Shown here: piece after piece, positions 525-40,590 of the stretch
How the letters are laid out: every line of letters starts with the position of its first letter
How positions within the stretch are numbered: the stretch's first letter is position 1
Origin: a virus
Lineage: Duplodnaviria > Heunggongvirae > Uroviricota > Caudoviricetes
DNA length: 64,000 nt
Virus record (IMG/VR): IMGVR_UViG_3300044655_003531
Coordinates: 64,001-128,000 of that record
Direction: 5' to 3' (one strand)
Made by a program: the position numbers and the translations under genes
Notes under the pieces: generated by a model
Databases searched by the model: none
Told to the model about the DNA's origin: nothing
What the model saw: the letters and a program-made list of their open reading frames with translations, nothing else

Positions 525-1340
525 ATGCAAAAGGAGAACCCCATTCAAAGTTTTAAAATTTTCGAGGCAAAAAAAGGAGATCGGGCAGCTGGCACAAGAT
601 TGTCCAGAAAGCAAACAGAAATCTTAAATAAACACGTTGTTGGCACCTGGGAAATGAACAGGAAAACTGACAGGGTGGACATCACAGGCAATTTTTATCT
701 TTCTGAACCTTTTAATCAGACCCGGGAAATTGATATTTTCAAGGGGATCGGATTTGGCAAGGTGACCGGGGTTTTTTATTGCACTAGAAATTTTTTTCAA
801 GATCTAGAGGGATTTCCACAAGAAGTTCAAGGAAGTTTCAACTGTAGCGATAACTCTTTGACCTCCTTGCAGGGAGGACCTACTAAAATAGGGAAGAATT
901 TCTCTTGCAACAACAACAATCTTAAAGATCTAGTTGGGGGTCCTGTTGAAGTTGGTGGGCAGTACTTGGCCTTTGGTAATCCCTTAACCAGTTTGGTAGG
1001 AGCTCCAGTTAAATTGAAGAAAGGTTTTTACTCCGATTTGGTCGATTTTAATGAAGGTAAATGGAATTATCTAGGTTGGATACAAGCCTTAGAAGAAGCT
1101 AAATCCAAAAATTTTACCCGTATTGAAGCTCTGATTTCAACCCTTCCTTTTTTAGATGTAAATTTCTTGAAGAATTATATTGTCGATAATCCAGATCGCA
1201 TGGTGGATCTAGCTATGTTTTGGGAATATCCAGAAGTTGCCAATTTCAGACGGGAGCTAGAAAAAGTTCTAGATCTCAATACGAAGAAAAAAGTGAAAAT
1301 TCTGAGCAATATGAGGGGATATTTCTCTACTTTTCGATAA
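525..1340 (+). CDS. LRR-like protein with capsid-targeting-like N-terminus; diverged relative of the 10197-13094 trio
   Basis: N-term NPIQSFKIFEA; repeats such as FNCSDNSLTSLQGGPTKIGKNFSCNNNNLKDLVGGP; same overall layout as the trio (GTW..VD cap, repeats, helical tail). Confidence 0.75.
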   Translation: MQKENPIQSFKIFEAKKGDRAAGTRLSRKQTEILNKHVVGTWEMNRKTDRVDITGNFYLSEPFNQTREIDIFKGIGFGKVTGVFYCTRNFFQDLEGFPQEVQGSFNCSDNSLTSLQGGPTKIGKNFSCNNNNLKDLVGGPVEVGGQYLAFGNPLTSLVGAPVKLKKGFYSDLVDFNEGKWNYLGWIQALEEAKSKNFTRIEALISTLPFLDVNFLKNYIVDNPDRMVDLAMFWEYPEVANFRRELEKVLDLNTKKKVKILSNMRGYFSTFR

Positions 1341-2088
1341 TGCCGATAGCGGTGGAAGTAGGGGTTTGATCAGAGGCAAAGACTATTCTGTTCTCATGGA
1401 AGAAGCAAATGCATGATTCAGGATCTACATAGTTCAAATGTGATTTGTAAATCGAAGCATCTAAGGGCTTGGCACAATCTATGTCAGAGCTTCCAATAGT
1501 CAATTTATAGTCAAAAGATTCTCCGATAACTCTGACGTAGTCCGAGTGAAGTGAGAAGTTTAGCAGCTCTTCGGAGTTGGACTCCATTCCACAGAGGGAA
1601 GAAACAGAAGAGAAATCAGAAACAAAAAATTTGAAACTGGCCAAGGCATCTTCTTGACTTTGAACCAGATCAGAAATGGAATCCTCCACATAAGAAAGCA
1701 AAGATAGATCAGCACATTTGATCCTTATTTTCAGAGAGGGGGAGATCAATTTTAATTCCGTTGCGACACACTCATCATCAATAGTGGCAATTTCCAGGTG
1801 TAAAAAAACTTCCTCCTCCGACCTAAAATAGCGGAAGCTATCCATCAGTCTGGTAATATCCAGCAGACCTATTTTAATTCTGTCACACTTAAGGGCTGAA
1901 AATTCAGTTAAGGAATCAAAAATAAGATTAGTGGGAATTCTGGAGAATTTCATGACAGATTTATCGGGGGTGTGAACTTTACAAAAAAGATCCGTTTCTG
2001 TTAATTCTAGCAAGACGCTTCGGTCGACGACTTTTAGCTTCTTGAGAAAAAGGATGAAATTACTCGTGCTGGTTACTCTAATTTTCAT
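1327..2088 (-). CDS. Probable DNA polymerase sliding clamp (gp45/PCNA-like)
   Basis: About 253 aa from MKIRVTS (ATG 2088); alternating beta/alpha pattern, clamp-like size, next to the polymerase subunit. No diagnostic motif. Confidence 0.5.
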   Translation of the reverse strand: MKIRVTSTSNFILFLKKLKVVDRSVLLELTETDLFCKVHTPDKSVMKFSRIPTNLIFDSLTEFSALKCDRIKIGLLDITRLMDSFRYFRSEEEVFLHLEIATIDDECVATELKLISPSLKIRIKCADLSLLSYVEDSISDLVQSQEDALASFKFFVSDFSSVSSLCGMESNSEELLNFSLHSDYVRVIGESFDYKLTIGSSDIDCAKPLDASIYKSHLNYVDPESCICFFHENRIVFASDQTPTSTAIGIIEK

Positions 2089-2114
2089 GGATTTAGATTT
2101 TTTTATTATAGGGT

Positions 2115-2783
2115 TTAGATGGAGGATTCTTTCGATGCATCGCAAAGAGAATCTGATTTTTTTTCTGAGAAATTTGTGAAGTAATGGTAGTCTGTTTCAT
2201 ATTTACCATTCCCTTCGATAGAATAGACCCTCATGTCGATCTTGTAGCCGGGATTTTTATCAATCCGGTTAAAAGTCCAGGCATTATCCATCCAGATGAT
2301 TCTGTTGTTGGGGTAGATAAAGAAATTACCATTGTCCATTTTAAAAACGTGTCCGCACTTGTGTTCGGGGGTTTCTGAGAAATTGGTGTCTAGAACACTT
2401 CTGTTTTCGTGGGACCAGTCCAAGGTAAATAGATAGACACCCTGCCTTTTGAGCCCCGTGATCGAAATCAGATCGGCCCTGAGACCCGACAGCCTTTCTC
2501 TTACCTGGACGTCAATGTAAGAACTGAAACAGTCCCAGTACATGTGTTCACTGAGGGGAAGAACTTCGGCCTGACGGTGCCAACAAAAGGCATGAATGGG
2601 CCGGCGGGTCCAGTTAACCCCATTTTCTAGAAATGCCTCGAAGAGAGGAACTCTTTTCTGAATAGATGCCACCGAATGAACATCGGCTAGGGTTAGATCC
2701 CCGTGTCCTTTTTCGTGATTGAATAAGAATTCATTTCTGATAAAACAGGTGAGGGTTGGAATGTTGTGATTTAGGTAAGACAT
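2115..2783 (-). CDS. Conserved hypothetical phage protein
   Basis: 222-aa ORF (MSYLNHNIP...PNNRIIW) resembling a common aquatic-phage family of unknown function. Confidence 0.6.
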   Translation of the reverse strand: MSYLNHNIPTLTCFIRNEFLFNHEKGHGDLTLADVHSVASIQKRVPLFEAFLENGVNWTRRPIHAFCWHRQAEVLPLSEHMYWDCFSSYIDVQVRERLSGLRADLISITGLKRQGVYLFTLDWSHENRSVLDTNFSETPEHKCGHVFKMDNGNFFIYPNNRIIWMDNAWTFNRIDKNPGYKIDMRVYSIEGNGKYETDYHYFTNFSEKKSDSLCDASKESSI

Positions 2784-2790
2784 AGGTGTT

Positions 2791-4212: not shown

Positions 4213-5283
4213 TTAATTAATTGAATCTAGATCTAAAAGAACCAATTCGATCTGATCTTGGCCGGCATCTTTCAATTTCTTGATGATCTCTTTCATGTCT
4301 TTTTTGTACTGGGTGGCAAGACAGCCACTGCTAATGTTATCGACGGTATCTATATCAGCTCCTTGATGAATGTTGATTCCAAATTCACCTTTTTCTTCAT
4401 TGCCCGGTGAAAAAGTTTTAAATGTTGCCTGACTTTCAGAATCGACTGGCGTGTATCTATGAACCGTGACTGGTTCTGCCTGGATTAATGCATCCTCTTT
4501 CCCTTTGTGCTTACCCAATTTATAGGTATAAACACCCGGTTGAATGATGGCTAGCCCCTTGGGGTTAATGCCGGAAGCATTGCCCCTACTAGCCATTAAA
4601 TTCCGATAACTTTTTACCATAAAGGCTGGCCCAGGTGTGGTGGTGGCTGGATAAAATTGGACTGTTTTATTGGAGTCGGGACCTAGTAAGAAAAGTGCAT
4701 CGGTGAAACGATTGGGCATTTTTTTCTTCACCACCAGGTTGTTTCTCAGAGCAACAAGAGTGTATTTATCGGACGGGTACTTGATTCCTTCTTTTTTCAA
4801 TAGTTGGCTGAGATCACTCCAATCCATTTCTTTGGCCTCACTAAATTCGTAAGATCCTCCGTCTGGTAACTTACCGAAATCTATATCTCCACTTTTTCCC
4901 ATTCCCATTCTATCGAGCATATCTTGCAATTCTTTTTCCTTTGAGATATTGCCGGAAGGTGCATTTCTTGATCCAGTTCCTTCATCAGATAAATATTTGC
5001 TGTCTAGGAGACCTTTCTCGGACATCTGCTTTCGATAATCTTCATCCGTTTTTTCTAAAAATCTCTTGCCCATACTGGTAGACCAAAACATATTCTGTAA
5101 ATCTTTACCTGACTTGATAATTGGTTCTTTTAGACCACCGCTTTCTCCCCCTGTTTTGGGAATCAGTGGGGCAACTTCCCCAATGGCATCTTTTAAAATA
5201 TCCTGAATTTTTTCATTCTCTGTTATTCTGTCCGTTGACAGACCGAGAAAATCTTGAAAATTCAGAACTTTAGATGATTTCAT
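4213..5283 (-). CDS. Capsid-tagged protein with C-terminal L,D-transpeptidase/peptidase-like domain
   Basis: N-term VLNFQDF; C-terminal GINIHQG...NISSGCL (His...S-x-G-C as in the YkuD-like catalytic motif); GATATATA at 5300-5307. Confidence 0.5.
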   Translation of the reverse strand: MKSSKVLNFQDFLGLSTDRITENEKIQDILKDAIGEVAPLIPKTGGESGGLKEPIIKSGKDLQNMFWSTSMGKRFLEKTDEDYRKQMSEKGLLDSKYLSDEGTGSRNAPSGNISKEKELQDMLDRMGMGKSGDIDFGKLPDGGSYEFSEAKEMDWSDLSQLLKKEGIKYPSDKYTLVALRNNLVVKKKMPNRFTDALFLLGPDSNKTVQFYPATTTPGPAFMVKSYRNLMASRGNASGINPKGLAIIQPGVYTYKLGKHKGKEDALIQAEPVTVHRYTPVDSESQATFKTFSPGNEEKGEFGINIHQGADIDTVDNISSGCLATQYKKDMKEIIKKLKDAGQDQIELVLLDLDSIN

Positions 5284-5309
5284 GAGGGATTTTTTTCTTT
5301 ATATATCCC

Positions 5310-10196: not shown

Positions 10197-11180
10197 GTGA
10201 AACACCTCCAATCCTTTTCCCTGTTCGAAGCTCGGAAGACTTCAGATCTGACCCAAAAGCAAAAGACTTTCCTGACCAAATACACGCAAGGGACCTGGTC
10301 GGTCAACCGACAGACCGGTCTGGTCGATGTGGAAGGAGATTTTGACTGTAGTTACAGCGGACTGAGGTCTCTATCGGGCATCTCGTTCGGACATGTCAGT
10401 GGGAATTTCTCCTGTGCCGGCAACGATCTGACCTCCCTGGCCGGGGCACCCCAGACGGTGGGTGGGTATTTCTCCTGCGACAACAACCAGCTGACCTCCC
10501 TGGTCGGGGCACCCCAGACGGTGTGTGGGAGTTTCTTCTGTCAAGGCAACCATCTGACCTCCCTGGCAGGGGCACCTCAGACGGTGGGTGGGGTTTTCGA
10601 CTGTTCCGGCAACCAGCTGACGACCCTGGCCGGGGCACCTCAGAAGGTAAATAGGAGTTTCGGCTGTTCCGGCAATCGACTGATCTCTCTGGCCGGGGCA
10701 CCTCAGACGGTGGGTGGGAATTTCTACTGCGACAACAACCAGCTGACCTCCCTGGTCGGGGCACCTCAGACGGTGGGTCGGGATTTCTGGTGTTCCCACA
10801 ACCGGCTGACGACCCTGGTCGGGGCACCTCAGACGGTGGGTGGGTATTTCTTCTGCGACTCTTTCAAACTCCGGAGTGGGGAATGGAATCCCCAGGGCTG
10901 GTTGGCCATTCTGGCCACTGGAGATAGAAAAGCCCGGAGGCTGATTGTGACCCTGCCCATGTTCGATGCCGGCTTCTGGCTGCAGAAACTGAAGGGAGAC
11001 TTGAAGAAAGACGGTCAGGTGCTTCTGCAGCTGGCAGACCTCTGGGATAAGTCAGGCTGGGAGGAGCAGAGACAGGAGATCGAACAGAGACTCAGTCCTG
11101 AGCAGCTTCGGGTCATCAAGGCCCTAAAGACCAAATTGGGCTACGTCAATCCCTGGAAAGACTTTGACGGGATTGTCTAG
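10197..11180 (+). CDS. Variable LRR protein copy A (7 GAPQ repeats)
   Basis: GTG start 4 nt after GATATATA (10185-10192); MKHLQSFSLFE tag; 21-aa repeat V-x-G-x-F-x-C-x-x-N-Q-L-T-S/T-L-x-G-A-P-Q-T. Confidence 0.9.
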   Translation: MKHLQSFSLFEARKTSDLTQKQKTFLTKYTQGTWSVNRQTGLVDVEGDFDCSYSGLRSLSGISFGHVSGNFSCAGNDLTSLAGAPQTVGGYFSCDNNQLTSLVGAPQTVCGSFFCQGNHLTSLAGAPQTVGGVFDCSGNQLTTLAGAPQKVNRSFGCSGNRLISLAGAPQTVGGNFYCDNNQLTSLVGAPQTVGRDFWCSHNRLTTLVGAPQTVGGYFFCDSFKLRSGEWNPQGWLAILATGDRKARRLIVTLPMFDAGFWLQKLKGDLKKDGQVLLQLADLWDKSGWEEQRQEIEQRLSPEQLRVIKALKTKLGYVNPWKDFDGIV

Positions 11181-11193
11181 AGATATATAAGGC

Positions 11194-11976
11194 GTGAAAC
11201 ACCTCCAATCCTTTTCCCTGTTCGAAGCCCGGAAGACTTCAGGCCTGACCCAAAAGCAAAAGACTTTCCTGACCAAATACACGCAAGGGACCTGGTCGGT
11301 CAACCAGCAGACCGGTCTGGTCGATGTGAAAGGAGATTTTGACTGTAGTTACAAAAGACTGAAGTCTCTGCGGGGAATCTCGTTCGGACATGTCAGTGGG
11401 GATTTCTGGTGTTTCAGAAACCAGCTGACGACCCTGGCCGGGGCACCCCAGACGGTGGGTGGGAGTTTCTTCTGTGGCGGCAACCAGCTGAAGACCCTGG
11501 CCGGGGCACCCCAGACGGTGGGTGGGGATTTCTACTGTCAAGGCAACCAGCTGACTTCCCTGGTCGGGGCACCCCAGACGGTAAATGGGGATTTCTACTG
11601 TTTCAGAAACCAGCTGACGACCCTGGCCGGGGCACCCCAGACGGTGAGGGAGGGTTTCTACTGCGACTCTTTCGAAGTCCGAAGTGGGAAATGGAATCCC
11701 CAGGGCTGGACCGAGATTCTGGCCAAAAAAAATAGCAAAGCCCGGAGCCTGATTGTGATCCTGTTCGATGCCGGCTTCTGGCTGCAGAAACTGAAGGGAG
11801 ATCTGAAGAAAGACGGCCAGGTGCTCCTGCAGCTGGCAGACCTCTGGGATGAACCAGGCTGGGAGGAGCAGAGACAGAAGATCGAACAGAGACTCAGTCC
11901 TGAGCAGCTTCGGGTCATCAAGGCCCTAAAGACCAAATTGGGCTACGTCGATCCCTGGAAGGACGGGATTGTCTAG
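11194..11976 (+). CDS. Variable LRR protein copy B (4 GAPQ repeats)
   Basis: Same caps and repeat; GATATATA at 11182-11189. Confidence 0.9.
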   Translation: MKHLQSFSLFEARKTSGLTQKQKTFLTKYTQGTWSVNQQTGLVDVKGDFDCSYKRLKSLRGISFGHVSGDFWCFRNQLTTLAGAPQTVGGSFFCGGNQLKTLAGAPQTVGGDFYCQGNQLTSLVGAPQTVNGDFYCFRNQLTTLAGAPQTVREGFYCDSFEVRSGKWNPQGWTEILAKKNSKARSLIVILFDAGFWLQKLKGDLKKDGQVLLQLADLWDEPGWEEQRQKIEQRLSPEQLRVIKALKTKLGYVDPWKDGIV

Positions 11977-11990: not shown

Positions 11991-13094
11991 GTGAAACACC
12001 TCCAATCCTTTTCCCTGTTCGAAGCCCGGAAGACTTCAGATCTGACCCAAAAGCAAAAGACTTTCCTGACCAAATACACGCAAGGGACCTGGTCGGTCAA
12101 CCCAGAGACAGGGCTAGTGGATGTAAAGGGAAGTTTTGCTTGTGGGGGTAAAAGATTAAAGAGCTTACAGGGCATCTCGTTCGGACATGTCAGTGGGAAT
12201 TTCTACTGTTCCGTCAACCAGCTGACCTCCCTGGCAGGGGCACCCCAGAAGGTGAGTGGGGATTTCTCCTGTTTCAGAAACCAGCTGACCTCTCTGGTCG
12301 GGGCACCTCAGACGGTGGATGGGCATTTTTACTGTGGCGGCAACCGGCTGACGACCCTGGTCGGGGCACCCCAGACGGTGGATGGGGATTTAGACTGTTC
12401 CTACAACCAGCTGACGACCCTGGCCGGGGCACCTCAGACGATGGATGGGCATTTCTTCTGTTCCTACAACCAGCTGACGACCCTGGTCGGGGCACCTCAG
12501 ACGGTGGGTGGGTATTTCTCCTGTTCCAGAAACCAGCTGACCTCCCTGTCAGGGGCACCCCAGAAGGTGGGTGGGAATTTCTCCTGTTCCGGCAACCAGC
12601 TGACCTCCCTGGCAGGGGCACCCCAGACGGTGGATGGGTATTTCTCCTGTTCCTACAACCAGCTGACGACCCTGGCCGGGGCACCTCAGACGGTGGGTGG
12701 GAATTTCTACTGCGACAATAACCGGCTGACCTCCCTGGTCGGGGCACCACAGACGGTGGGTGGGATTCTCCGGTGCGACTCTTTCACACTCCAAAGTGGG
12801 GCATGGAATCCCCTGGGCTGGACCAAGATTCTGGCCACTGGAGATAGCGAAGCCCGGAGCCTGATTGTGACCCTGCCCATGTTCGATGCCGGCTTCTGGC
12901 TGCAGAAACTGAAGGGAGACCTGAAGAAAGACGGCCAGGTGCTCCTGCAGCTGGCAGACCTCTGGGATAAGTCAGGCTGGGAGGAGCAGAGACAGGAGAT
13001 CGAACAGAGACTCAGTCCTGAGCAGCTTCGGGTCATTAAGGCCCTGAAGACCAAATTGGGCTACGTCGATCCCTGGAAGGACGGGATTGTCTAG
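11991..13094 (+). CDS. Variable LRR protein copy C (9 GAPQ repeats)
   Basis: Same caps and repeat; GATATATA at 11978-11985. Confidence 0.9.
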   Translation: MKHLQSFSLFEARKTSDLTQKQKTFLTKYTQGTWSVNPETGLVDVKGSFACGGKRLKSLQGISFGHVSGNFYCSVNQLTSLAGAPQKVSGDFSCFRNQLTSLVGAPQTVDGHFYCGGNRLTTLVGAPQTVDGDLDCSYNQLTTLAGAPQTMDGHFFCSYNQLTTLVGAPQTVGGYFSCSRNQLTSLSGAPQKVGGNFSCSGNQLTSLAGAPQTVDGYFSCSYNQLTTLAGAPQTVGGNFYCDNNRLTSLVGAPQTVGGILRCDSFTLQSGAWNPLGWTKILATGDSEARSLIVTLPMFDAGFWLQKLKGDLKKDGQVLLQLADLWDKSGWEEQRQEIEQRLSPEQLRVIKALKTKLGYVDPWKDGIV

Positions 13095-13125: not shown

Positions 13126-14007
13126 ATGAAAGAAAAAATAAGAAGGATTCAAAACTTCAGAGATTTTAGCAACTTGAATAGTTCCTTTAATTTAGATTTA
13201 GTTCTGGAAAAAATGGGTCGAAGAAGCCCAGTTGAATTGGCAAATTTACTGGAAAAATCCATCAAAGGTCTAGGAACGGACGAAGAACTGTTGCTGAAAA
13301 CTTTATTAGAAATTCCTGATTTGAAAACTCTGGGGGAAATTGATGCCATTTTTGCTAAATTTCCAGCCGTTTATTCATATAGAAGTGTTGGATCCCTTAT
13401 TAATTCCGAGTTAGGTTTTTTTGATCAGAAAATAATCGATGAAATAAAAAAACACACGGATCAATTGAAAGTCACAAATGACTTCTTACAAAAACAAGAA
13501 GAATCTCGTTTGAAGGACGAAAAAGTTAGAAGAACCGCGGAAGAAAGCATTAAATTGCACGAGGGTATTAAATATCAAATTTACCGGGACTCTAGAAAAA
13601 ATCTATCAATTGGAATTGGAATGAATCTAGAAAGATCGGATGCAGATACCAGGTTAAAGGAAATTGGGGCCAATCCAAAATTAATCAGGTCGGGAAAAGA
13701 GAAATTGAATGACAGTCAAATTCAGATTCTGTTTAAAAAAGACGTGGATAAAGCTATCGAAGATGCCAAATCTCTGGTTCCTGATTTGGGTCAACAGCCC
13801 TTACCGGTACAATGTGTTTTGATAGAAATGGCATTCAACCTCGGAAAGTCGGGCCTGTCCGAATTCAAAAAATTCTTATCTCACATCCAAAACATGAATT
13901 ACAAATTGGCTTCCCAAGAGATGCTCAATTCAACCTGGGCCAAGCAAGTGGGGAACAGAGCAAAAGAGCTGGCCAAAAGAATTGAAACTTACGAAGTAAA
14001 AAAATAA
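13126..14007 (+). CDS. Annexin-repeat + phage lysozyme (GH24-like) fusion with capsid-targeting-like N-terminus
   Basis: LEKSIKGLGTDEELLLKTLLEI matches the annexin K-G-x-G-T-D-E motif; C-terminal IKLHEGIKYQIYRDSRKNLSIGIGMNL...EMAFNLG...STWAKQVGNRA is T4-type lysozyme-like. Confidence 0.8.
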   Translation: MKEKIRRIQNFRDFSNLNSSFNLDLVLEKMGRRSPVELANLLEKSIKGLGTDEELLLKTLLEIPDLKTLGEIDAIFAKFPAVYSYRSVGSLINSELGFFDQKIIDEIKKHTDQLKVTNDFLQKQEESRLKDEKVRRTAEESIKLHEGIKYQIYRDSRKNLSIGIGMNLERSDADTRLKEIGANPKLIRSGKEKLNDSQIQILFKKDVDKAIEDAKSLVPDLGQQPLPVQCVLIEMAFNLGKSGLSEFKKFLSHIQNMNYKLASQEMLNSTWAKQVGNRAKELAKRIETYEVKK

Positions 14008-14015: not shown

Positions 14016-14579
14016 ATGAAAATACTGAACTTCGGAGAATTTAGGGATCAGATCAGTGAAAATCTGCAATATCACCTCCAAAATGATCTGACTCTAGCCA
14101 CTAGCGTCTTTAGAATTGGCTCCGAAGCCTGGTACGGGGTAATAGATGAGACTAGACGCCTTTGGGAATCAAATTCGATTGAATTAGACGACGACGACAC
14201 TTTTTTGATTAGCACCGAACTGGGCCGAAGGGGAATCTTTGAAGGGAAAGAGGTGTGGCTGGATTTACCTCTCCCTGAAGAGGATCTGCACGAGGCAGAA
14301 TATAAGGGCAGGAAGGTTTCTCTGAACAAACCTTTCAGAACCCCGGGTGCTCCTAGAAAATTTGGGGTTTACACTAAAAACGAGTCTGGTAACGTCGTTC
14401 TAGTTAGATTCGGCCAGCCAGGTATGAGAATAAGAAATGACGATCCTCAGAGATCAAAATCTTTTAGAGCAAGACACAATTGTGATAACCCAGGTCCCAA
14501 ATGGAAAGCCAGATACTGGTCCTGTAACGTGTCAAGATACAGAAAACTACTGGGCATTAAATCTTCAAGTCCATGGTAG
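14016..14579 (+). CDS. Conserved hypothetical head-associated protein
   Basis: N-term MKILNFGEF..ISE tag; basic C-terminal domain KFGVY..VRFG..RSKSFRARHNC..ARYWSC common in large phages. Confidence 0.7.
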   Translation: MKILNFGEFRDQISENLQYHLQNDLTLATSVFRIGSEAWYGVIDETRRLWESNSIELDDDDTFLISTELGRRGIFEGKEVWLDLPLPEEDLHEAEYKGRKVSLNKPFRTPGAPRKFGVYTKNESGNVVLVRFGQPGMRIRNDDPQRSKSFRARHNCDNPGPKWKARYWSCNVSRYRKLLGIKSSSPW

Positions 14580-27084: not shown

Positions 27085-27498
27085 CTATCTAAAGTTTCCT
27101 CTCATTTCTTTCCTTTTTAAATAATAATACAGGTAATTAAGGGCTCTGAGATAGTCGGCCGGTTTAGTAAAAGGCCCCGGAAATTTTTTGATTTCATTTC
27201 CAAATCCCTCGGGAATTGTGTCGTCAACTTTCGGATTGTATCTTCTAACAATGCCTGTGGGATGGATTGTATAGAAGATTTTCTCCTCACCTGGCTCTAA
27301 AGATTCCTGATCAGGACGAAAAAATTTAAGGGTGTTGTTGAGACCCTGTTGAAGAGAATGCTGCTCAACAAAGCCCAGATCCAGAATTTTTTGATAAATG
27401 TCAGATTTCCTGATGCCTCCAAGAGAAAGACTCCTACGGGTATCGGTTAGATATTCTTCCCGAGGATCGTAGTCTTCATATTCGAGCAGGAATCTCAT
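27085..27498 (-). CDS. Hypothetical capsid-tagged protein
   Basis: Start MRFLLEYEDY (27498) directly follows the upstream stop. Confidence 0.65.
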   Translation of the reverse strand: MRFLLEYEDYDPREEYLTDTRRSLSLGGIRKSDIYQKILDLGFVEQHSLQQGLNNTLKFFRPDQESLEPGEEKIFYTIHPTGIVRRYNPKVDDTIPEGFGNEIKKFPGPFTKPADYLRALNYLYYYLKRKEMRGNFR

Positions 27499-27972: not shown

Positions 27973-28290
27973 TTATTTTCTAAATTTATTCGGAAAAAGC
28001 ATCCTCCACTCGTGGCCTTTAGGCACCTGGGAAGTTTTGACTCCGAAGATTTTTTCTTCTGGACAAGGATCTTCTCCGTTGATGGTGAAGCCGTTGTTAC
28101 AAGCCCAGGTTTCTAAACTGCGATTGATGTTTTGTCCGACTGACCAGGGAAATCTCATGCCTCTAGGATTGTCGATGCTTTCTATTCTTGAACCTTGAAG
28201 AGTCAGAGTGATCTTTGCCCGATTCCGGGTGGATTCTAATTCTACTGTTCTCCCCCTGGACCAAGATTCATAAACAGTGATGTGTTTCAT
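27973..28290 (-). CDS. Small capsid-tagged hypothetical protein
   Basis: MKHITVYESW N-terminus. Confidence 0.7.
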   Translation of the reverse strand: MKHITVYESWSRGRTVELESTRNRAKITLTLQGSRIESIDNPRGMRFPWSVGQNINRSLETWACNNGFTINGEDPCPEEKIFGVKTSQVPKGHEWRMLFPNKFRK

Positions 28291-28299: not shown

Positions 28300-28869
28300 C
28301 TAACCCTCTATTTTTTTTAGTTTGATGTAGTAGTTTGGATCCTCGTAGAGATGATCCATGGCAATTTCCCTGGCCTGCTGTGGTCTTTGGGTGTGTTCCA
28401 TCTCGACAAAAACTCCGTCCACTAGCTGTTGAGTTAAATGATCTAGAATTTCTGATAAAGATGAAGAATTTTTACCGGAGTGTTTAAGAGCTATATCTAA
28501 AATTGTCAGTTTATCCGATTTGCCTCCTTTCAAAAACTCTAAATTCGTCGCACCTTCTTTAAGATACAGTCCCTTCATTTTTTTCTTGATCTGAGCAGCT
28601 GTCATCGGTTTGCTGTTCAAATTCCAGTTGGCGGCAGGATTAATGATTTTAGAGGATTTCTTTTTCCACTCTGGAAATGTCCACAACCACTTATTGTAGG
28701 CTTTTCCCACTATCTCAAACCCTTTATCCCCCGGCTGAATAGCAATTGGAGACTGGGGAGGAATATAAGAACCCGTTTCAGCCTCGTGGGTCATCTCCGG
28801 ATCTCGATTTAATTTTTGATCGGATTCGTTGAGATATTTTCGAGACTGAAATGGGTTTTGACGTGTCAT
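28300..28869 (-). CDS. Hypothetical protein with DUF5661-like C-terminus
   Basis: GVFVEMEHT..AREIAMDHLYEDPNYYIKL. Confidence 0.65.
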   Translation of the reverse strand: MTRQNPFQSRKYLNESDQKLNRDPEMTHEAETGSYIPPQSPIAIQPGDKGFEIVGKAYNKWLWTFPEWKKKSSKIINPAANWNLNSKPMTAAQIKKKMKGLYLKEGATNLEFLKGGKSDKLTILDIALKHSGKNSSSLSEILDHLTQQLVDGVFVEMEHTQRPQQAREIAMDHLYEDPNYYIKLKKIEG

Positions 28870-29139: not shown

Positions 29140-30483
29140 TTATATTCCAAGTTTCTCTCTAGTTTTAGGTCCCACTATTCCATCATCCACCAAACCTTTT
29201 TTCCTTTGAAATTCCTTAACAGCCTGTTCAGTTTTAGGACCAAAATTAGTTCTTTGGGTTCCTAAATTTGTCATGCCCAATGCATCCTGGAGTTTACCGA
29301 CCTCCTCAGACTTCATTCCTCTTTTTAAGACTTCTTTTCCTCCGCTGCCTGCTGACTGGACGGATCCAGATCCTCCCGAGTCCTTTCCTTCTGAGTCTTC
29401 TTTTTTAACTTCACTAAATCCCAAGGCACCCAATAGAACTTGTTTTTGATCGGAGCTTAAACTGGAAGCCCATTTTTTCAAATCTTCCTTTGTTTTGATT
29501 GACGAAGGAAATTTTATATCTTTTACTTCTTCTTCTTCTTTATATTTTTGATCTTTTTCTCCTTTATTATCTTCTTCTGAAGTTAAAAGTTTTCTGAATT
29601 CTTCTATTTGTTTAACGATTGTTTCGGCCCAAACTTCTTTTGATGATTTGCCAAGGTCAACATTTTCCAATTCTTGCTGACCCCCTTTAGATTTTTGAGA
29701 GGACTTGAAATTGATTTTTGCTCCTTTTGCATTTAGATCCGTGACCAATTTTCCCATCATTTCTTGGGAAACTTCCACTGCCTTGTCTTTGAAAGTCGTA
29801 GAAAAAGCCAAGCCAAAAAGTTCCAATAAGTTCGATAATTGTTCGGACACAACTTCATTGTATCCTGAGAATTCCTCATCCGATAAAGCCTTACCCACCA
29901 TTTCTATCAATTGGTCATAGGTAGTTTCTTCTCTTAAGGAGGTCATACTTTTAACAATCCCCCTTTCTACTGCATTCATTTCTTTCCAGATTTGGGGCCA
30001 AACCTGGAGCCAAAATTCTTTAGGCTCGATTTTAGTTTCTTCAATAATAGGCTTACCATCAAATTTGACAGACGGAATAAAGTACTTAGACACTATAGGA
30101 AAAATCTTATTGAGTGACCTTTCGATTAGAGCCTTAATAGCCACTTTATATTTGGAATCGATGTTGTCTAGGGTTTCAGTTTTGACTTCTTCGATCCAGG
30201 TATTCATAACATTGTTTGCTATCCCGTATGGTTCAACACTTTGACCGTTAATGTCGATTTTTTGCTCCATAGGTAATTCTTTGCCCTTAATTTGATAAAA
30301 GGGCGTACTCAAACGTTTTTGGCTTTCTTCTTGATCACCCAGGACTGGAGAATCCCCTCCTCTTTTTTTTCCGATTTTATCGAGTTTTTTTTCTAATCTT
30401 TCTTCCCTTCTTTGCAGTCTCCTCTCCTTTCGACTCATTTCTTCTTCTAAAATATAATCAGAGAATTTAATAATAGAGTTCAT
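29140..30483 (-). CDS. Capsid-tagged protein with C-terminal peptidoglycan-binding domain
   Basis: MNSIIKFSDYILEEE; LKRGMKSEEVGKLQ..FGPKTEQAVKEFQRKKGL..DGIVGPKT (PG_binding_1 pattern); GATATATA at 30499-30506. Confidence 0.8.
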   Translation of the reverse strand: MNSIIKFSDYILEEEMSRKERRLQRREERLEKKLDKIGKKRGGDSPVLGDQEESQKRLSTPFYQIKGKELPMEQKIDINGQSVEPYGIANNVMNTWIEEVKTETLDNIDSKYKVAIKALIERSLNKIFPIVSKYFIPSVKFDGKPIIEETKIEPKEFWLQVWPQIWKEMNAVERGIVKSMTSLREETTYDQLIEMVGKALSDEEFSGYNEVVSEQLSNLLELFGLAFSTTFKDKAVEVSQEMMGKLVTDLNAKGAKINFKSSQKSKGGQQELENVDLGKSSKEVWAETIVKQIEEFRKLLTSEEDNKGEKDQKYKEEEEVKDIKFPSSIKTKEDLKKWASSLSSDQKQVLLGALGFSEVKKEDSEGKDSGGSGSVQSAGSGGKEVLKRGMKSEEVGKLQDALGMTNLGTQRTNFGPKTEQAVKEFQRKKGLVDDGIVGPKTREKLGI

Positions 30484-30799: not shown

Positions 30800-31333
30800 C
30801 TAGCGATTCAAGACGTAAACTCCTTTTCTAGATCCGGGTTGCAAATGCCATTCATCACCTAGGATCGAAATTAACATAGATCTAGCGTACTCCTCGTAGT
30901 TATTCAGAACTAGATTTTGATTCATCTCATCCACTATTCTGATTGTTTTTGGGTTTTTCTCCAAGTAATTCAAAAGACATTTGCCAATCTGCTTGTAGAG
31001 CCTCGCCAATTCTCCTCCCTTAAGTTTAAATTTATTGGAGTTAGCTTCGGGTAAATTCTTGGTGTTCTCAATTGCAATGTCTTCGATCACCTCGGGCTCG
31101 ATCTGGTTGAGATTAATGACGGCATAAGAATTTTTTGGACCCTCCATATTTTCAAATCTGGAGTATTTGCCAATCAAAAAAACATAACCTTGCTGGTCTC
31201 CTTTTTCTTTGTCTATCTGGAAAAAATAGTAACATAGATCCCCGTCTTTCTTAAAGAGAAAGGGCAAGGTTCCAAACCCATCGGCTTCATTTAGCTGGGT
31301 AATGAATTGAGAATAAGGAAGAATAACTTTCAC
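30800..31333 (-). CDS. Capsid-tagged hypothetical protein
   Basis: MKVILPYSQFITQLNE; GATATATA at 31351-31358. Confidence 0.7.
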   Translation of the reverse strand: MKVILPYSQFITQLNEADGFGTLPFLFKKDGDLCYYFFQIDKEKGDQQGYVFLIGKYSRFENMEGPKNSYAVINLNQIEPEVIEDIAIENTKNLPEANSNKFKLKGGELARLYKQIGKCLLNYLEKNPKTIRIVDEMNQNLVLNNYEEYARSMLISILGDEWHLQPGSRKGVYVLNR

Positions 31334-31372
31334 TGTGGATTGTTTTATGTTATATATCTCTAGAATTTTGTT

Positions 31373-33322
31373 TTATTCTTTCAAAGCGGACTTCAAAATC
31401 TCGTAATTGTTTAAAACAGCTTTAGGTAACATTTTTTTGGCAGCTGTAAAATTGCCTTCCTTCAATTTTGTCCTCACCTCTGTGGCAGACATGGATCTTT
31501 TACTGACGTGAAGAGCGAAATCAGAAGGTAATTTATCGTGCAGCTCTGTTTTTTTAATGTACTCAAACTGTTTACCGTAATCATCCGCCCTGTCTTCTCC
31601 AGATCCCACCAGATGAGGGATGTAGCCCTCTTCGACCAATCTATTAACAACTGAACCCAATAGACCCAATTTGACAATCTTGTAACCGGCAAAGTCTTCT
31701 GGATAAGCTTCCATCAAGGAATCCATGTACTGCTTGATAATCTCTTCATTAAATGGGGAATTTTTATTTCTGTTGTGACCTGGATAAACGACCACAACAA
31801 AAACAGGAAAATCGTTTTTTTTCTTCATCTCTTGGGCCATCTTCAAATGTCCCAGATGGAAAGGTTGGAATCGTCCGAGCATCACATTGATGTTTTTCTC
31901 CTCCTTTTTCCCCGTAGATTTTTCTTCTGCTTCTTCAACCGTGTTTTCTTCCCGTTGCTCTAGGTATTCTTCGTGTTTTTGATCGATGGTCTCTAACTTG
32001 GAAATGAATTCGTCGAAGGAAAAGAGAGGATTTTCTTCCTCTTCATTGTCATCAAGTTCTTCTCTGAGATAATCTACGGAAGGAGAATTTATTTTCTTGA
32101 ATTCGAGGAAGCTCGTAAAATCTTGTTTTTCTTGCTCGTTGATTTTTTTCTTGGCCACATAATTTTTGATTTTCTGAACTAGTAGATTGAATTGTTCTAA
32201 AGTACCGGCTTTTACCAGTCCCGAAGCTCGAGTCTTGATTTTTCTGAATGAATTGAGCATCAACTTGAACAAGGACTCAAAGGCCGGGTCTTCTTCGACC
32301 CATTTTAGAACTCTCCTGTCCGAAATGAGTTGTTTGTTCAATCTGAATTCTTCTTTCTTCAGATAATCAGGTTCATCAAAATCAGTGCCTTTATACTTCT
32401 CCGAGTACTGACTCAGAAACTTGGCAAACACGTCCGACATATAGGAGATGTATCTTTCCTCCTCAGAATCCCCTTCTGTTTCGAAAGATTTTACCCCCTT
32501 TTGGAGAATGTAGTTCATAACGTCCAAAAGGGTCAGACCCAGAAAATCACTGGGTTTTCTTTCCATCTGTTGTTGGGTCTTTTCCTTGGCCAACTCCGTG
32601 AAGATGGGATCAACCATCTTGGCTAAAACTGTTTCGCTTTCTCTATCCGGATGACCAAACCTAAACACGATTCCCTCCACATCTTTATCCAGGTTATCGT
32701 TCAGAGCAGTTTTCTCTAAAGCTGGGTTAAGGACCGAGATGATAAACCTCACGAAACTTTGAGTGGAAAATTTTCGGGTTAGCTCTTTGAAGGGGGTAGA
32801 CAAAAATTCCATCAAGGCAACTTTTTGATCGGGCTGAAGCAGGCCCTGAAAAATAATAGGACTTCTTTCCACTCCCAAAAGATCAGCCCATTCGTCCAGC
32901 TTTTCTTTCTTTTGAAGGGTTCTGGCGACTTTGCCTCCCGGCGCCATTTGATGAATGTAAGAAAGAATCAGATTATTTTTGGGCACCCGATCATAGACTA
33001 TTTCAACTGGCTGGGTGTTGGCGAAATACTCTAGGCCAAATCTCCAGCCTCTGGGGATTCTCTCTATAATGTGAGGGGGAAGACTCGTGATATAAGAAAT
33101 AGGTTTCTCATAGTATTTCATCAAAGTACGGTCAACTAGGGTAATTGGATTCCTTTGATCCCGCCGATAAAATTTGAAATTCCCAGTCTCTTGATCCCTC
33201 TCGAAACTAAAGGCAGAACCATCCATCTTTTCATTGATGGTAACAAATTCCCTGAAAAGAGAATTGATAAAATTTTCTCCTTTTTTGTGGTAAAGATCGT
33301 ATAGATGATTAATGCCAGACAT
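31373..33322 (-). CDS. Fusion: ligase-superfamily nucleotidyltransferase (RNA ligase-like) + NMNAT/cytidylyltransferase-like (HxGH) domain
   Basis: Motif I EKMDG, motif III-like RFGLEYF, motif IV DVEGIVF, motif V LAKMVD; C-terminal MLGRFQPFHLGH and SMSATEVR. Confidence 0.8.
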   Translation of the reverse strand: MSGINHLYDLYHKKGENFINSLFREFVTINEKMDGSAFSFERDQETGNFKFYRRDQRNPITLVDRTLMKYYEKPISYITSLPPHIIERIPRGWRFGLEYFANTQPVEIVYDRVPKNNLILSYIHQMAPGGKVARTLQKKEKLDEWADLLGVERSPIIFQGLLQPDQKVALMEFLSTPFKELTRKFSTQSFVRFIISVLNPALEKTALNDNLDKDVEGIVFRFGHPDRESETVLAKMVDPIFTELAKEKTQQQMERKPSDFLGLTLLDVMNYILQKGVKSFETEGDSEEERYISYMSDVFAKFLSQYSEKYKGTDFDEPDYLKKEEFRLNKQLISDRRVLKWVEEDPAFESLFKLMLNSFRKIKTRASGLVKAGTLEQFNLLVQKIKNYVAKKKINEQEKQDFTSFLEFKKINSPSVDYLREELDDNEEEENPLFSFDEFISKLETIDQKHEEYLEQREENTVEEAEEKSTGKKEEKNINVMLGRFQPFHLGHLKMAQEMKKKNDFPVFVVVVYPGHNRNKNSPFNEEIIKQYMDSLMEAYPEDFAGYKIVKLGLLGSVVNRLVEEGYIPHLVGSGEDRADDYGKQFEYIKKTELHDKLPSDFALHVSKRSMSATEVRTKLKEGNFTAAKKMLPKAVLNNYEILKSALKE

Positions 33323-33762: not shown

Positions 33763-34684
33763 TACTAACCAGTTTTTTTATTTCCCAAGGAATGTCGTGA
33801 TTGGTTCTCTCTAAGTATCTGACAAAATCTTCCACTATAGATTGTAGTTTATCGGCATGGATAAAAGTCGGTTTTTTTATTAAAGACCAGACATCCTCGA
33901 AGGTCTTAACATCACTCGGTCTAACACCAGAACCAAAAAGTAGATCTAGCATCTTTTGAGGATCCCTGGTGACTAGAAAGGTGCTATCTTCTAAAATTTT
34001 AGGTCGGGAGAGTCTTTTTGTTGCTCCCCGATAGGTCTTACGATTCTTATAAACGCCATCTCCTAGTTTGAGAACATACCCAGTATAATCCATGATTTGC
34101 CCTTCTTTATCAACGGAATCTACATCCTTCAAGGCCGAAAGAATGGCCTGGAAAAGCCAATTCCTGTGGGCAGATTTATACTTGGATTCTTTTTTTCTCT
34201 GGTCCGGGGAGTAAAAAATAAATTTAGCCCAATCCATATCCGCAATTGGAATCAGATCAAGTTGAACCGTGCCGTTCTTGATGTTCCCCTCAATGGGCCA
34301 TTCAACGCTGACTATGTTGATCCCTTTAAACATTTTGATCTCCGGTTTGTAACCCAAAATGTCGGGGAGTTGGTCCTTCAGTTTCTCGGTCATTACATCC
34401 AACACCTTGGATTCAGGAACACCCCATTTTTGGGCCAGGAAGGGTTTAGAAACTCCCAAATCCACGTCCCCGGAAGTGTCATCTGGACTTTCTTTTTTTC
34501 CAATGCTGCCAATGAGCAAAAAGTCCCTGTTTAATTTTCCATCGCCCAGCAAGGGAAAAAGGGCTTCCCCTAAGTGGGTCAAAGTTTTGGCCACTTCATC
34601 CTCTCGGATCTTTCTAGAACTGCCAATAGCAGCCCCTCCTTCATTTAATTCCATATATTGTGTGTAGGTATAAATCATGCTCAA
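33746..34684 (-). CDS. Pol-beta superfamily nucleotidyltransferase with capsid-targeting-like N-terminus
   Basis: IGSIGKK..TSGDVDL (GS..DxD) and third acidic VQLDL; N-term MIYTYTQYMELNE. Confidence 0.75.
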   Translation of the reverse strand: MSMIYTYTQYMELNEGGAAIGSSRKIREDEVAKTLTHLGEALFPLLGDGKLNRDFLLIGSIGKKESPDDTSGDVDLGVSKPFLAQKWGVPESKVLDVMTEKLKDQLPDILGYKPEIKMFKGINIVSVEWPIEGNIKNGTVQLDLIPIADMDWAKFIFYSPDQRKKESKYKSAHRNWLFQAILSALKDVDSVDKEGQIMDYTGYVLKLGDGVYKNRKTYRGATKRLSRPKILEDSTFLVTRDPQKMLDLLFGSGVRPSDVKTFEDVWSLIKKPTFIHADKLQSIVEDFVRYLERTNHDIPWEIKKLVSNERFP

Positions 34685-35235
34685 ATATCGTAAAATCTTC
34701 TGGCCCCTTTAATGTAACTTGAATACACCCTGCCTTCTTCAGAGCTGGGAGAATCTAGATCAAAATCATCTCCAAATGTTCTTCTGCCACTATCGTAGGC
34801 TCTACTATAGAAATCCTCATAGTCTTCTCTTGTGTTTCTGCCACTTTTTGTAATGGTTTCACCCCATTTTTCTAGCATATCTTTCTTTTGTCTCTTAAGA
34901 CTCTCCAGAGAATCCCCACCTCTAAAAGGCATTTTAAAAACATCAACAATAGATTTAGCCACCTTCTGAACAAGGGACAGGCCCATTCGGACCAATCTTA
35001 GCGGAGCTCCACTCGGATCTTCTGCCATAGCTTGAAATCTTGCTCTGGCTCCCGAATCTGAAAATTCACCAATTCCCGTTTCCGATTCTTTTCTTGAATA
35101 TCGATCCTCTATCCTTCTCTCTATTTCTTCGAACTTACTCCAATCGTCCTCTTTATCAAAATTGGATCTAAACCTGCTTCTTTCTCTGTTTATTGCCTCA
35201 GAAAACATGGAAAAGTTTTTTAATCTGGGAGTCAT
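34681..35235 (-). CDS. Capsid-tagged hypothetical protein
   Basis: Start MTPRLKNFSMFSEA (35235) follows GATATATA at 35254-35261. Confidence 0.7.
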   Translation of the reverse strand: MTPRLKNFSMFSEAINRERSRFRSNFDKEDDWSKFEEIERRIEDRYSRKESETGIGEFSDSGARARFQAMAEDPSGAPLRLVRMGLSLVQKVAKSIVDVFKMPFRGGDSLESLKRQKKDMLEKWGETITKSGRNTREDYEDFYSRAYDSGRRTFGDDFDLDSPSSEEGRVYSSYIKGARRFYDI

Positions 35236-35270
35236 AAATCTGATTTTTTGATTTATATATCCCAACTTGT

Positions 35271-39582: not shown

Positions 39583-39647
39583 AATTTCTTTAATTTTTTT
39601 AAGTTTGATCTTTTAATGGAGAGAATAATAAAAAGTTTCACCCCTTT

Positions 39648-40334
39648 TTATATATCCTTTGAAAATTTTTTTTCTGATGACATGAGGTATAGACAGATCC
39701 AGGTGGCATCGATTAGATCATCGAGAGGCTTTTGAACTACCTTACTGGATGAGATCCAAGTGGAAGCTCCTGCTCTCAATGTATCTAAGAAATTGTTCAG
39801 ACCAGTCTCAAGATCTCTTTTTTCTAACAGGGCATGATAGAGCTCGTCTTTTTTACAGTTTCCCTTATAGGCATATTTTTTAATGGCAGTAGGAGAATAA
39901 ACATAAAAGTTGTCGAAGCCAGTCCTCGTGATTATTCTTTCTCTGAGTAGGGCCGTAGCCATAGAAATATCAATTAACGAATTTCCGTTAGAGGCAAAGC
40001 TCAAACCCTCCATCGCAATCACTAGTTCATCTTCAGGCTCTAACTGAGAAATAAGATGATGCCACAGGGTGTCTACAATTTGGATGTAGTTCTGCATCTT
40101 TGCTCTTTCTTTTTCCGGATAAGAATCAGGAAATGACAATTTATTCAAAAAAAGCAAATGCACATCAGGCATTTGCTCTAAGACAGAATAGGGTTTGATT
40201 GCGGATTTAATAAGAGATTGCTGGGTTCTATCTGATCTAGTAATAGACAGCCAACTGTAGTTGCCATTTTTATACAAACAATAGGCAGGGGAATTAAGAG
40301 AAAAATCTATCCCAACGTAAATTGGATTGGACAC
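39648..40334 (-). CDS. RuvC-like (RNase H fold) nuclease / Holliday junction resolvase
   Basis: YVGIDFS, IAMEG, DDLIDA acidic tetrad. Confidence 0.75.
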   Translation of the reverse strand: MSNPIYVGIDFSLNSPAYCLYKNGNYSWLSITRSDRTQQSLIKSAIKPYSVLEQMPDVHLLFLNKLSFPDSYPEKERAKMQNYIQIVDTLWHHLISQLEPEDELVIAMEGLSFASNGNSLIDISMATALLRERIITRTGFDNFYVYSPTAIKKYAYKGNCKKDELYHALLEKRDLETGLNNFLDTLRAGASTWISSSKVVQKPLDDLIDATWICLYLMSSEKKFSKDI

Positions 40335-40344
40335 CTAAACAGAT

Positions 40345-40590
40345 TTAAAGGTTTGCTGGGACTGCTTCCCCAACTTTACCCGTGTAATTATAAACTTTCA
40401 CCAAATTATCGTAGCATTTTTTCATCTGCTCATCAGTAAGACAATCCACTATATCATTTAAGACCCTTTGATCGTTACCCGAGGCGGCAACTAGAAGATT
40501 TTTCATATGCTGCTTCAGGTCACTTTCCCCGTACATCGGCTGACCGTATTTCATTTCATTTACTCTGGCTAGTTCTGAGAATTTTTTCAT
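40345..40590 (-). CDS. Small capsid-tagged hypothetical protein
   Basis: MKKFSELARVNE; GATATATA at 40609-40616. Confidence 0.7.
   Translation of the reverse strand: MKKFSELARVNEMKYGQPMYGESDLKQHMKNLLVAASGNDQRVLNDIVDCLTDEQMKKCYDNLVKVYNYTGKVGEAVPANL

Follow-up and report, generated by a model that had tools for sequence, protein, structure and literature searches.

A putative T4-type capsid-targeting peptide on many proteins of an uncultured jumbo phage

Among 195 ORFs on a 150-kb fragment of an uncultured, T4-related jumbo myovirus, ~21 encode proteins that begin with a short peptide in which two spaced aromatic residues are usually followed by an aliphatic-x-Glu site, and these proteins are spread over at least 15 families. 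The explanation that we consider likely, from the patterns in these sequences, is that the peptides are capsid-targeting sequences (CTSs) of the T4 type, expanded to 20-30 or more cargo proteins. If so, the tag would be a short docking peptide, probably helical, through which proteins made late in infection enter the scaffolding core of the assembling prohead. A T4-type serine prohead protease would then remove it by cutting behind the Glu of a [LIV]-x-E site close by, L-N-E being the commonest. The mature cargo would stay inside the head alongside the DNA and probably exit with it at infection. By analogy with T4, we infer that the tagged proteins dock to the scaffold, lose their tags, are present in virions, are injected, and act before transcription.

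The window analyzed is a stretch of 64,000 nucleotides (positions 64,001 to 128,000 of IMG/VR record IMGVR_UViG_3300044655_003531) within this fragment, which is 61% complete. For comparison, five contigs with 65-74% tail-sheath identity, all incomplete and including G001 and G004, served as relatives, and T4 sequences were taken from AF158101 (100 kb, 152 ORFs scored). The tag profile is a HMMER profile built from the tags of this phage alone, which replaced an over-fitted first PSSM. Protease, capsid and portal genes (the head module) were not found in the phage's own 150-kb contig, so the link to a T4-type head rests on the relatives, a point against the CTS reading; ARAGORN found no tmRNA at genome positions 48-68 kb. 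No paper describing expanded CTS sets in uncultured phages was found in the literature.

The N-terminal motif and the proteins that carry it

An earlier note on this DNA had listed 17 N-termini as variants of one tag. All 17 exist where it placed them, apart from a shift of one gene start from 34684 to 34678 (that at 23373 belongs to a 108-aa ORF on the plus strand), and 15-16 of them fit [ILV]-x-x-[FY]-x-x-[FYW], as do at least five proteins encoded outside the window (Table 1). The protein starting at 28869 is a doubtful member, since its orthologues do not keep the motif and their N-termini differ. Those at 27498 and 28290 had been counted as full tags and do possess the aromatic core, but neither has a clear cut site nearby (in the former, the first [ILVM]xE is 87 residues off). 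In all, 2 or 3 of the listed tags are without one, which counts against the CTS reading. The core at 27498 is retained in G004 and L008, and no orthologue of the protein at 28290 was found among the relatives examined. To call the tagged proteins unrelated, as had been done, is an overstatement for the three LRR genes and the gene at 525, which are paralogues, so the 17 proteins make ~13 families.

Several measures indicate that the motif is concentrated at N-termini. An F-x-x-F pair in the first 18 residues occurs in 25 proteins, versus 9.6 expected (p 1e-5); few other spaced pairs of residues are as strongly over-represented there. Most tags have [ILVM]-x-Glu within 8 residues downstream of the aromatic core; counted from the second aromatic residue, 25 of 41 tags (61%) have [ILVM]-x-E within 8 residues, versus 14.9% of 1913 internal controls. 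The tags are 10-28 residues long, the third residue before the predicted cut is L, I, V or M, the Glu is followed in most cases by A, G, S or N, and the commonest predicted site is L-N-E. The distance from start codon to aromatic core varies from 4 to 11 residues, Phe codons within the tags are mixed (TTT 18, TTC 13), and orthologues at 50-85% identity differ in tag residues while keeping the aromatic spacing and the Glu. The N-terminal enrichment, the retention of a pattern despite residue change and the mixed Phe codons together argue that the motif acts as a peptide.

Scanning the genome with a profile of the tags had been proposed as a check. The best matches in this phage are N-terminal, and two matches outside the training set lie at C-termini. 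In G004, seven of the nine best matches begin no more than 5 residues from the start codon. When the N-termini of the 152 T4 ORFs are ranked with the same profile, the internal proteins IPII, IPI and IPIII come 2nd, 4th and 5th, which bears out the parallel that had been drawn with the T4 internal-protein tag. All 16 replication, nucleotide-reduction or tail proteins are tag-free, so the absence that had been reported for replication proteins extends to the other two classes. The expected Glu-ending site does follow the tag and is invariant in orthologues, and on these points the in silico evidence supports the testable parts of the earlier interpretation.

Table 1. Tags, related motifs and upstream boxes. 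A slash marks the predicted cut; positions are those of the window except in the last row. Scores are profile matches in bits; that of the 649-aa fusion is for its G004 counterpart.
Protein	Gene	Tag or motif	Position	Strand	Box	Score
271-aa LRR-family paralogue	525-1340	MQKENPIQSFKIFE/A	525..566	+	513-520, 4 nt before ATG	6.2
356-aa protein, phrog_3000, function unknown	4213-5283	core VLNFQDF, site ITE/N	5218..5283	-	5300-5307	7.9
LRR protein 1	10197-11180	MKHLQSFSLFE/A	10197..10229	+	10185-10192	
LRR protein 2	11194-11976	MKHLQSFSLFE/A	11194..11226	+	11182-11189	
LRR protein 3	11991-13094	MKHLQSFSLFE/A	11991..12023	+	11978-11985	
293-aa lysozyme-domain protein	13126-14007	core IQNFRDF, first site VLE/K	13126..13209	+	variant TATATATA, 4 nt upstream	12.0
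187-aa protein	14016-14579	MKILNFGEFRDQISE/N	14016..14060	+	none of its own	8.1
adenylate kinase, complete	17636-18268	MDLVKNFSDFLIE/R	18230..18268	-	18273-18280	
108-aa protein	23373-23699	MTPRIKSFKKFLSE/S	23373..23414	+	23360-23367	
158-aa protein	26327-26803	NPIQSFSDFIQIM, C-terminal end	26348..26386	-		8.4
137-aa protein, weaker member	27085-27498	core MRFLLEYEDY	27469..27498	-		6.4
105-aa protein, weaker member	27973-28290	core MKHITVYESW	28261..28290	-		
189-aa DUF5661 protein, doubtful member	28300-28869	loose match MTRQNPFQSRKYLNE/S	28825..28869	-		
447-aa protein	29140-30483	MNSIIKFSDYILE/E	30445..30483	-	30499-30506	
177-aa protein	30800-31333	tag ending QFITQLNE/ADGF	31286..31333	-	31351-31358	8.4
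649-aa ligase-fold / cytidylyltransferase-like fusion		NPLFSFDEFISKLE, residues 431-444, between both domains	31991..32032	-		5.6
310-aa protein, probable nucleotidyltransferase (lead)	33746-34678	MIYTYTQYMELNE/GG	34640..34678	-		
184-aa protein	34681-35235	MTPRLKNFSMF(SE/A)	35203..35235	-	35254-35261	9.4
81-aa protein	40345-40590	MKKFSELARVNE/M	40555..40590	-	40609-40616	
further tagged genes outside the window (at least 5)	genome 34261-35178, 57811-58827, 59439-59969, 60290-60616, 61365-62831					

Besides many proteins of unknown function, the cargo would include adenylate kinase, an ATP-grasp enzyme and a probable nucleotidyltransferase, two or three proteins that hydrolyse or bind the cell wall, and a variable LRR family. 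The tag had been described as sitting on enzymes, and its presence is confirmed on the adenylate kinase, on the 293-aa protein, which ends in a phage lysozyme domain (PF00959, residues 145-285) and whose tag is the best profile match, and on the 447-aa protein with a C-terminal peptidoglycan-binding domain; the nucleotidyltransferase assignment of the 310-aa protein is a lead only. In the adenylate kinase the ADK domain begins at residue 26, so the tag is an add-on, and the orthologues differ in tag residues and keep F-x-x-F and L-x-E before a conserved RE[LI]PD. Adenylate kinase is an odd cargo, which counts against the CTS reading.

Orthologues of other tagged proteins follow the same pattern to varying degrees. 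In both G004 and L008, the orthologue of LRR protein 1 retains L-x-x-[FY]-x-x-[FY]-E. For the 81-aa protein, whose gene lies immediately upstream of that for the tail tube, F-S-[ED]-L and [IVM]-N-E/MK are retained in nine relatives. The G004 orthologue of the 177-aa protein has an altered tag yet retains LNE/ADGF, and those of the 310-aa and 184-aa proteins carry MIANFNQFMRLNE/GG and LLKFDEFNFINE/N, respectively; a public gene call for the 310-aa protein begins at residue 9 and would delete its tag. In the G004 orthologue of the 187-aa protein, whose gene lies in the same direction behind that of the lysozyme-domain protein, the core is further into the sequence. Across 25 cluster representatives of the 108-aa family, down to 60% identity, M1, K6, F8 and E14 are invariant; its AlphaFold2 model is poor (mean pLDDT 55.6), and the tag appears in it as a short helix at low confidence only.

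Promoter box, head genes and scaffold

A box, GATATATA, occurs 15 times in the window, versus 1.2 expected, and several start codons lie only 4-5 nt past it. Tagged genes make up 13 of the 27 box-bearing genes versus 8 of the 168 others (p 4e-8). In G001 the box stands ahead of the protease-scaffold gene, of neighbours of the capsid gene, and of genes for the baseplate and fibres. It is also found ahead of non-virion genes, such as those for a gp32-like SSB and PhoH, which counts against the CTS reading. The shared box ties the tagged genes to the head, baseplate and fibre genes, and its position suggests that it is a late promoter.

Peptidase_S77 and Gp23-type proteins are encoded by four of the five relatives, and the head genes are flanked by at least 8 tagged genes. 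The protease, a T4-type prohead protease that also has a weak match to Peptidase_S80, is fused to a scaffold of ~15 repeats of 14 residues that contain Y-x-x-Y-L-A-E (consensus I-x-Y-x-x-Y-L-A-E-N-x-D-x-x). The protease-scaffold family numbers 299 clusters at E < 1e-30. In the gp23-type capsid protein, L-N-E/S is the last Glu ahead of the conserved core; it could not be aligned in register with the L-T-E/A of T4, the region being too divergent.

The T4 CTS is said to associate with the core, with no binding partner named (PMC5694885, PMC3012670), and the likeness between tags and repeats suggests the scaffold repeat unit as a concrete candidate for that partner. A profile of 15 scaffold repeats run against this phage, G004 and T4 retrieves neither the tags nor the T4 CTS, which counts against the CTS reading, and the strict 7-residue pattern has 12-15 occurrences per genome elsewhere, so this likeness is at the level of pattern only. 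A complex prediction for scaffold repeats (residues 232-500 of the G001 protease ORF) and the N-terminal 45 residues of a tagged protein gave no answer on binding either way.

Other positions of the motif and alternative explanations

The motif also occurs away from N-termini. The C-terminal NPIQSFSDFIQIM motif of the 158-aa protein lies outside the training set and is conserved in G004 and L008; residues 72-120 of this protein are a copy of the capsid protein N-arm, including the cut site (blastp 2e-11 against the G001 capsid protein), and its N-terminal domain is unrelated. The domain-junction motif NPLFSFDEFISKLE is conserved in G004, and a further occurrence lies near residue 700 of a ClpB-like ATPase, towards its C-terminus. 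These C-terminal, domain-junction and ClpB-like occurrences count against a classical CTS reading. A tentative extension, to which we give well under an even chance, is that the CTS is a general, position-independent cargo code in this clade that copies the scaffold repeat unit. Each repeat contains an aromatic-x-x-aromatic-aliphatic-x-Glu unit, like the tags and T4 YQEFIAE; such a unit at an N-terminus, a C-terminus or a domain junction would allow co-assembly with the repeat array and release after the Glu, and at least 30 proteins would be loaded, including metabolic enzymes, cell-wall hydrolases, the diversifying LRR family and perhaps the ClpB-like unfoldase.

The tag may direct proteins to the prohead core without marking an injected kit; most tagged proteins would then have a part in assembly or in the core itself, and would be broken down or retained in the capsid. 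The T4 core proteins gp67, gp68 and gp22 have similar N-termini and are cut to pieces, many of the tagged proteins are small and of unknown function, and several of their genes adjoin the protease and capsid genes in relatives. However, the tag is also found on complete enzymes (adenylate kinase, lysozyme, ATP-grasp) and on a diversifying LRR family, none of which has an obvious head-building role, and the cut site is mostly right behind the tag, where cleavage would leave the protein body intact, so we regard this explanation as unlikely. Rather improbable, too, is a role unrelated to the capsid, in which the peptide would be a docking or recognition motif of some other late machine (the ClpB-like ATPase or DnaJ of the phage, for example, or another assembly). 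The phage does encode a ClpB-type double AAA+ protein, which bears the motif itself, and a DnaJ, and the motif's occurrence at both termini and internally would suit such a role, but it would not explain why the Glu site is conserved, why the tags resemble the T4 CTS, why tagged genes cluster around those for protease, scaffold and capsid protein, or why the capsid N-arm copy bears the motif.

A radical-SAM gene that sits between tagged genes in G004 raises the idea of a leader peptide for a modifying enzyme of this kind. This is very improbable: no radical-SAM gene was found in the 150 kb of this phage or in four of the five relatives (all incomplete contigs), and no SPASM domain was found, the G004 enzyme being without one. 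Least probable of all is that the motif has no function as a peptide and arises as a side effect of composition or of mRNA signals around the start codon (very short leaders, AT-rich codons). MK-rich starts are general, and with 4-5 nt between box and start the first codons could hold initiation signals, but the varying start-to-core distance, the mixed synonymous codons, the exchange of residues within a retained pattern in orthologues, and the conservation of C-terminal and internal copies largely refute it.

Comparison with known systems and implications

Short terminal peptides that load diverse enzymes are also known from encapsulins, in which a peptide at either end directs cargo into an HK97-fold shell without a portal, scaffold, protease step or delivery into another cell; the encapsulin peptide sequence is unrelated to the tags. 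The CTS and Glu-specific cleavage are established in T4 (PMC5694885, PMC3012670), in which the CTS is carried by IPI, IPII, IPIII and Alt (Mullaney and Black 1996, as cited in PMC5694885 and PMC3012670). The likeness of the tags to this CTS is at the level of pattern only: both are N-terminal peptides of 10-20 residues on otherwise unrelated proteins, with aromatic-x-x-aromatic and then aliphatic-x-Glu (T4 YQEFIAE/A; here FSDFLIE/R and FKKFLSE/S), and the 356-aa protein has the layout of IPI, with ~12 residues from core to site in IPI and ITE/N 10 residues past its own core. Late expression (here suggested by the box) and the presence in the clade of a T4-type protease and capsid protein are further parallels. 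Unlike T4, which has ~6 tagged proteins with near-identical tags, this phage has ~21 in 61% of its genome, probably 30 or more overall; its tags are diverse, with L-N-E as the commonest predicted site, its predicted cargo includes whole metabolic enzymes and the variable LRR family, and it has the motif at C-termini and a domain junction, where the classical T4 CTS is not used.

Other large phages (phiKZ, 201phi2-1 and SPN3US) likewise have many internal head proteins that are cut after Glu by a related protease. Their head and ejection propeptides are mostly >100 residues with A/S/G-x-E sites (PMC5694885, PMC10052503), and do not form a single shared short tag, whereas the tags described here are short and have L/I/V/M-x-E sites. 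Among more distant phages, Flavobacterium phage MaF61 showed no evident tag in 41 kb, nor did LR756500 and Lak-A1 in the surroundings of their capsid genes.

Should the tags function as they do in T4, they would allow the proteins that uncultured large phages inject, among them those that encounter host defences first, to be read from sequence alone. This would provide a candidate list of anti-defence or takeover proteins, including the cassette-variable LRR family and whole enzymes. It would also imply that the packaging signal of T4 occurs widely and lends itself to extension, which would be relevant to engineering phage heads as protein carriers.

A recurrent N-terminal peptide and its predicted cut site

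An earlier note proposed that about 17 unrelated proteins begin with a candidate capsid-targeting sequence (CTS) of the form [ILV]-x-x-[FY]-x-x-[FY]...[LI]-x-E, hereafter the tag. All 17 of these N-termini exist, but the gene at window 23373 and the start of that at 34684 were corrected (see table), and the proteins are not all unrelated, since the three tagged leucine-rich-repeat (LRR) family genes and their relative at window 525 are paralogues. When spaced residue pairs in the first 18 residues were counted without bias, F-x-x-F was among the most enriched (25 proteins vs 9.6 expected), and a loose regular expression matched 22 of 194 ORFs (8.6 expected), with the matches clustered at genome 59-105 kb. 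A profile HMM built from the 17 tags revealed a distinct top group in this genome, all N-terminal except two C-terminal matches on which it had not been trained, while seven of its nine best matches in the relative G004 begin within five residues of the start codon. At least five further tagged genes lie outside the window, including those for a GH19-like hydrolase and a RimK-type ATP-grasp enzyme, and none of 16 replication, nucleotide-reduction, tail and baseplate proteins has an N-terminal match to this profile above -2 bits.

The tag acts at the peptide level. The first aromatic residue lies anywhere from 4 to 11 residues after the start codon, both Phe codons are used (18 TTT, 13 TTC), and in orthologues from G004 and from a 12-kb relative contig (L008) the residues of the tag differ while its spacing and Glu are kept. 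For example, adenylate kinase orthologues carry three different tags ahead of a conserved RE[LI]PD. Since the kinase domain starts only at residue 26, the tag is an addition to a whole enzyme. In the family of the 108-aa protein, M1, K6, F8 and E14 are invariant across 25 cluster representatives with identity down to 60%.

A candidate cleavage site accompanies most tags. Among 41 tags from this phage, G004 and a further relative, G001, [ILVM]-x-Glu occurs within 8 residues of the second aromatic in 25, compared to 14.9% of 1913 internal F-x-x-F controls, and within 15 residues in 73% (23.5% of controls). The commonest predicted site is L-N-E, followed mostly by A, G, S or N; two or three tags have no such site nearby.

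The motif is also found away from N-termini: two proteins carry it C-terminally, a ligase-fold/cytidylyltransferase-like fusion has it at the junction of its two domains, and a ClpB-like ATPase has it near residue 700. All of these occurrences are conserved in G004. In the fusion the motif occupies residues 431-444 and is followed by K-L-E exactly between the domains, where the head protease might split the protein into two enzymes. The ClpB-type protein, a double AAA+ ATPase encoded outside the window, has a C-terminal extension of ~160 residues that holds R-I-N-S-F-S-E-F ... L-D-E|A (the bar marks a predicted cut).

Coordinates of features discussed
Feature	Location	Strand	Remark
Corrected gene at 23373	window	+	108-aa ORF
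Corrected gene at 34684	window 34678 (start)
GATATATA boxes close to starts (examples)	window 513-520, 5300-5307, 10185-10192, 18273-18280, 23360-23367 and others
Polymerase, N-terminal part	window 21923-23323	-	~467 aa
Polymerase, C-terminal part	genome 63307-64461	-	384 aa
Capsid N-arm copy	window 26327-26803	-	158 aa
Ligase-fold/cytidylyltransferase-like fusion	window 31373-33322	-
ClpB-type ATPase	genome 55341-57806 (L004:7341-9806)	+
Protease-scaffold	G001 45748-47775 (L031:5748-7775)
Protease-scaffold	G003 57426-59459
Radical-SAM protein	G004 58595-59440 (L044:18595-19440)		281 aa
Shared-leader protein	Lak-A1 (L051) 8545-9708	+
Shared-leader protein	Lak-A1 (L051) 33478-34527	-
T4 gp57B	AF158101 73952-74410		MMEFKDFS...
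T4 rI.-1	AF158101 58819-59205		MKFSDFS...

Head machinery in related phages

The window spans bases 64001-128000 of an IMG/VR viral contig of 150,077 bp, a linear fragment estimated by CheckV to be 61% complete. The contig contains T4-like modules (gp5-like hub, gp6-like wedge, tail tube, gp32-like SSB, gp41-like helicase, gp61-like primase and PhoH); a search of these 150,077 bp found no capsid, portal or prohead-protease gene, and the head module is probably located in the missing part of the genome. Two genes ~22 kb apart seem to make up its family B DNA polymerase, and L008 has the same N-terminal gene with the same end point.

Twelve contigs share 65-74% sheath identity with this phage, and four of the five largest encode both a Peptidase_S77 domain, which scores 36-39 bits and exceeds the cut-off, and a capsid protein of Gp23 type (121-127 bits). 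The protease is the N-terminal portion of a 675-aa ORF in which the catalytic domain is followed by a tag-like F-S-F-S-E-F, then L-N-E|S, a helical stretch and fifteen 14-residue units with the pattern I-S-Y-S-E-Y-L-A-E-N-V-D-R-N. G001 and G003 both encode such a fusion of a T4-type prohead protease to a Y-x-x-Y-L-A-E repeat scaffold. Within the ORF, a GATATATA box and an ATG in frame at residue 232 point to a nested gene that would also yield the scaffold portion by itself. This fused family comprises 299 clusters in public data (E < 1e-30), and 93 of the best 150 representatives contain at least three Y-x-x-Y-[LIV]-x-E units, frequently at a spacing of 14 residues.

The relatives' capsid protein, whose closest counterparts belong to huge phages of Bacteroidota type (LR756500, 45%; Prevotella Lak phages, 39%; Tenacibaculum PTm1, 32%), has an N-terminus homologous to the T4 gp23 propeptide. 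L-N-E|S holds the last Glu ahead of its conserved core, a position occupied by L-Y-E|N in LR756500. At least eight tagged genes, of families absent from our phage, flank the relatives' head genes.

Residues 72-120 of a 158-aa protein reproduce the N-arm found in the major capsid protein of the relatives (blastp 2e-11), including the predicted site (L-S-E|SEGAF vs L-N-E|SAGAY); it terminates in the targeting motif and may be a decoy or accessory for head maturation. A radical-SAM gene sits amid tagged genes in G004 only, and a SPASM domain was not detected in its product. Two proteins near the capsid gene of Prevotella phage Lak-A1 share the N-terminus M-N-K-[LQ]-I-K-[RQ]-L-[IL]-E-[SN]-L-F-D-D, which differs from the tag here and could be a leader common to that clade.

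A promoter-like element upstream of tagged genes

The window contains 15 copies of the element GATATATA (1.24 expected; 0 of 100 shuffles reached 15), and 11 of these copies stand 4-18 nt upstream of tagged genes. Contig-wide, tags are found on 13 of the 27 genes that have a box and on 8 of the 168 that lack one (Fisher p 3.6e-8), and no box was found in genome 1-35 kb. In G001, copies lie upstream of the protease-scaffold gene, of the genes either side of the capsid gene, and of genes for the baseplate and fibres. Because of these associations and its absence from 1-35 kb, the box is read as a putative late promoter; it also lies upstream of the SSB and PhoH genes and is therefore not purely structural. 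Some boxes are only 4-5 nt ahead of the start codon, as in the LRR genes, which begin with GTG, so these mRNAs may be leaderless or nearly so.

Comparison with T4 and a possible packaging route

In phage T4, the CTS loads the prohead core with internal and also with foreign proteins and is removed by gp21, and both T4 and giant-phage proteases cleave after Glu (PMC3012670, PMC5694885). The T4 record gives the N-termini MKTYQEFIAE|A (IPII and IPIII), MKTFKEFTS...ITE|A (IPI), MELITELFDE|D (Alt) and MLKEQLIAE|A (scaffold protein gp22). When the HMM, trained on this phage's tags only, was applied to T4 50-150 kb, IPII, IPI and IPIII were the second, fourth and fifth N-terminal matches among 152 ORFs. 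The N-termini of T4 gp57B and rI.-1 score as high as those of the internal proteins under this profile.

We infer that late-made tagged proteins would use the tag to dock to the scaffolding core. A possible partner within it is the repeat array, whose aromatic-x-x-aromatic-aliphatic-x-Glu unit resembles the tags at the level of pattern only. The capsid shell would then close around them, and protease cuts after Glu would destroy the scaffold and free the cargo of its tag, leaving it to remain with the DNA and exit with it. A literature search found no paper on such expanded CTS sets. At the sequence level the tag system resembles the T4 CTS in its short shared N-terminal peptide, aliphatic-x-Glu site, residue pattern and putative late promoter, and differs from it in scale, tag diversity, cargo type and the positional freedom of the tags.
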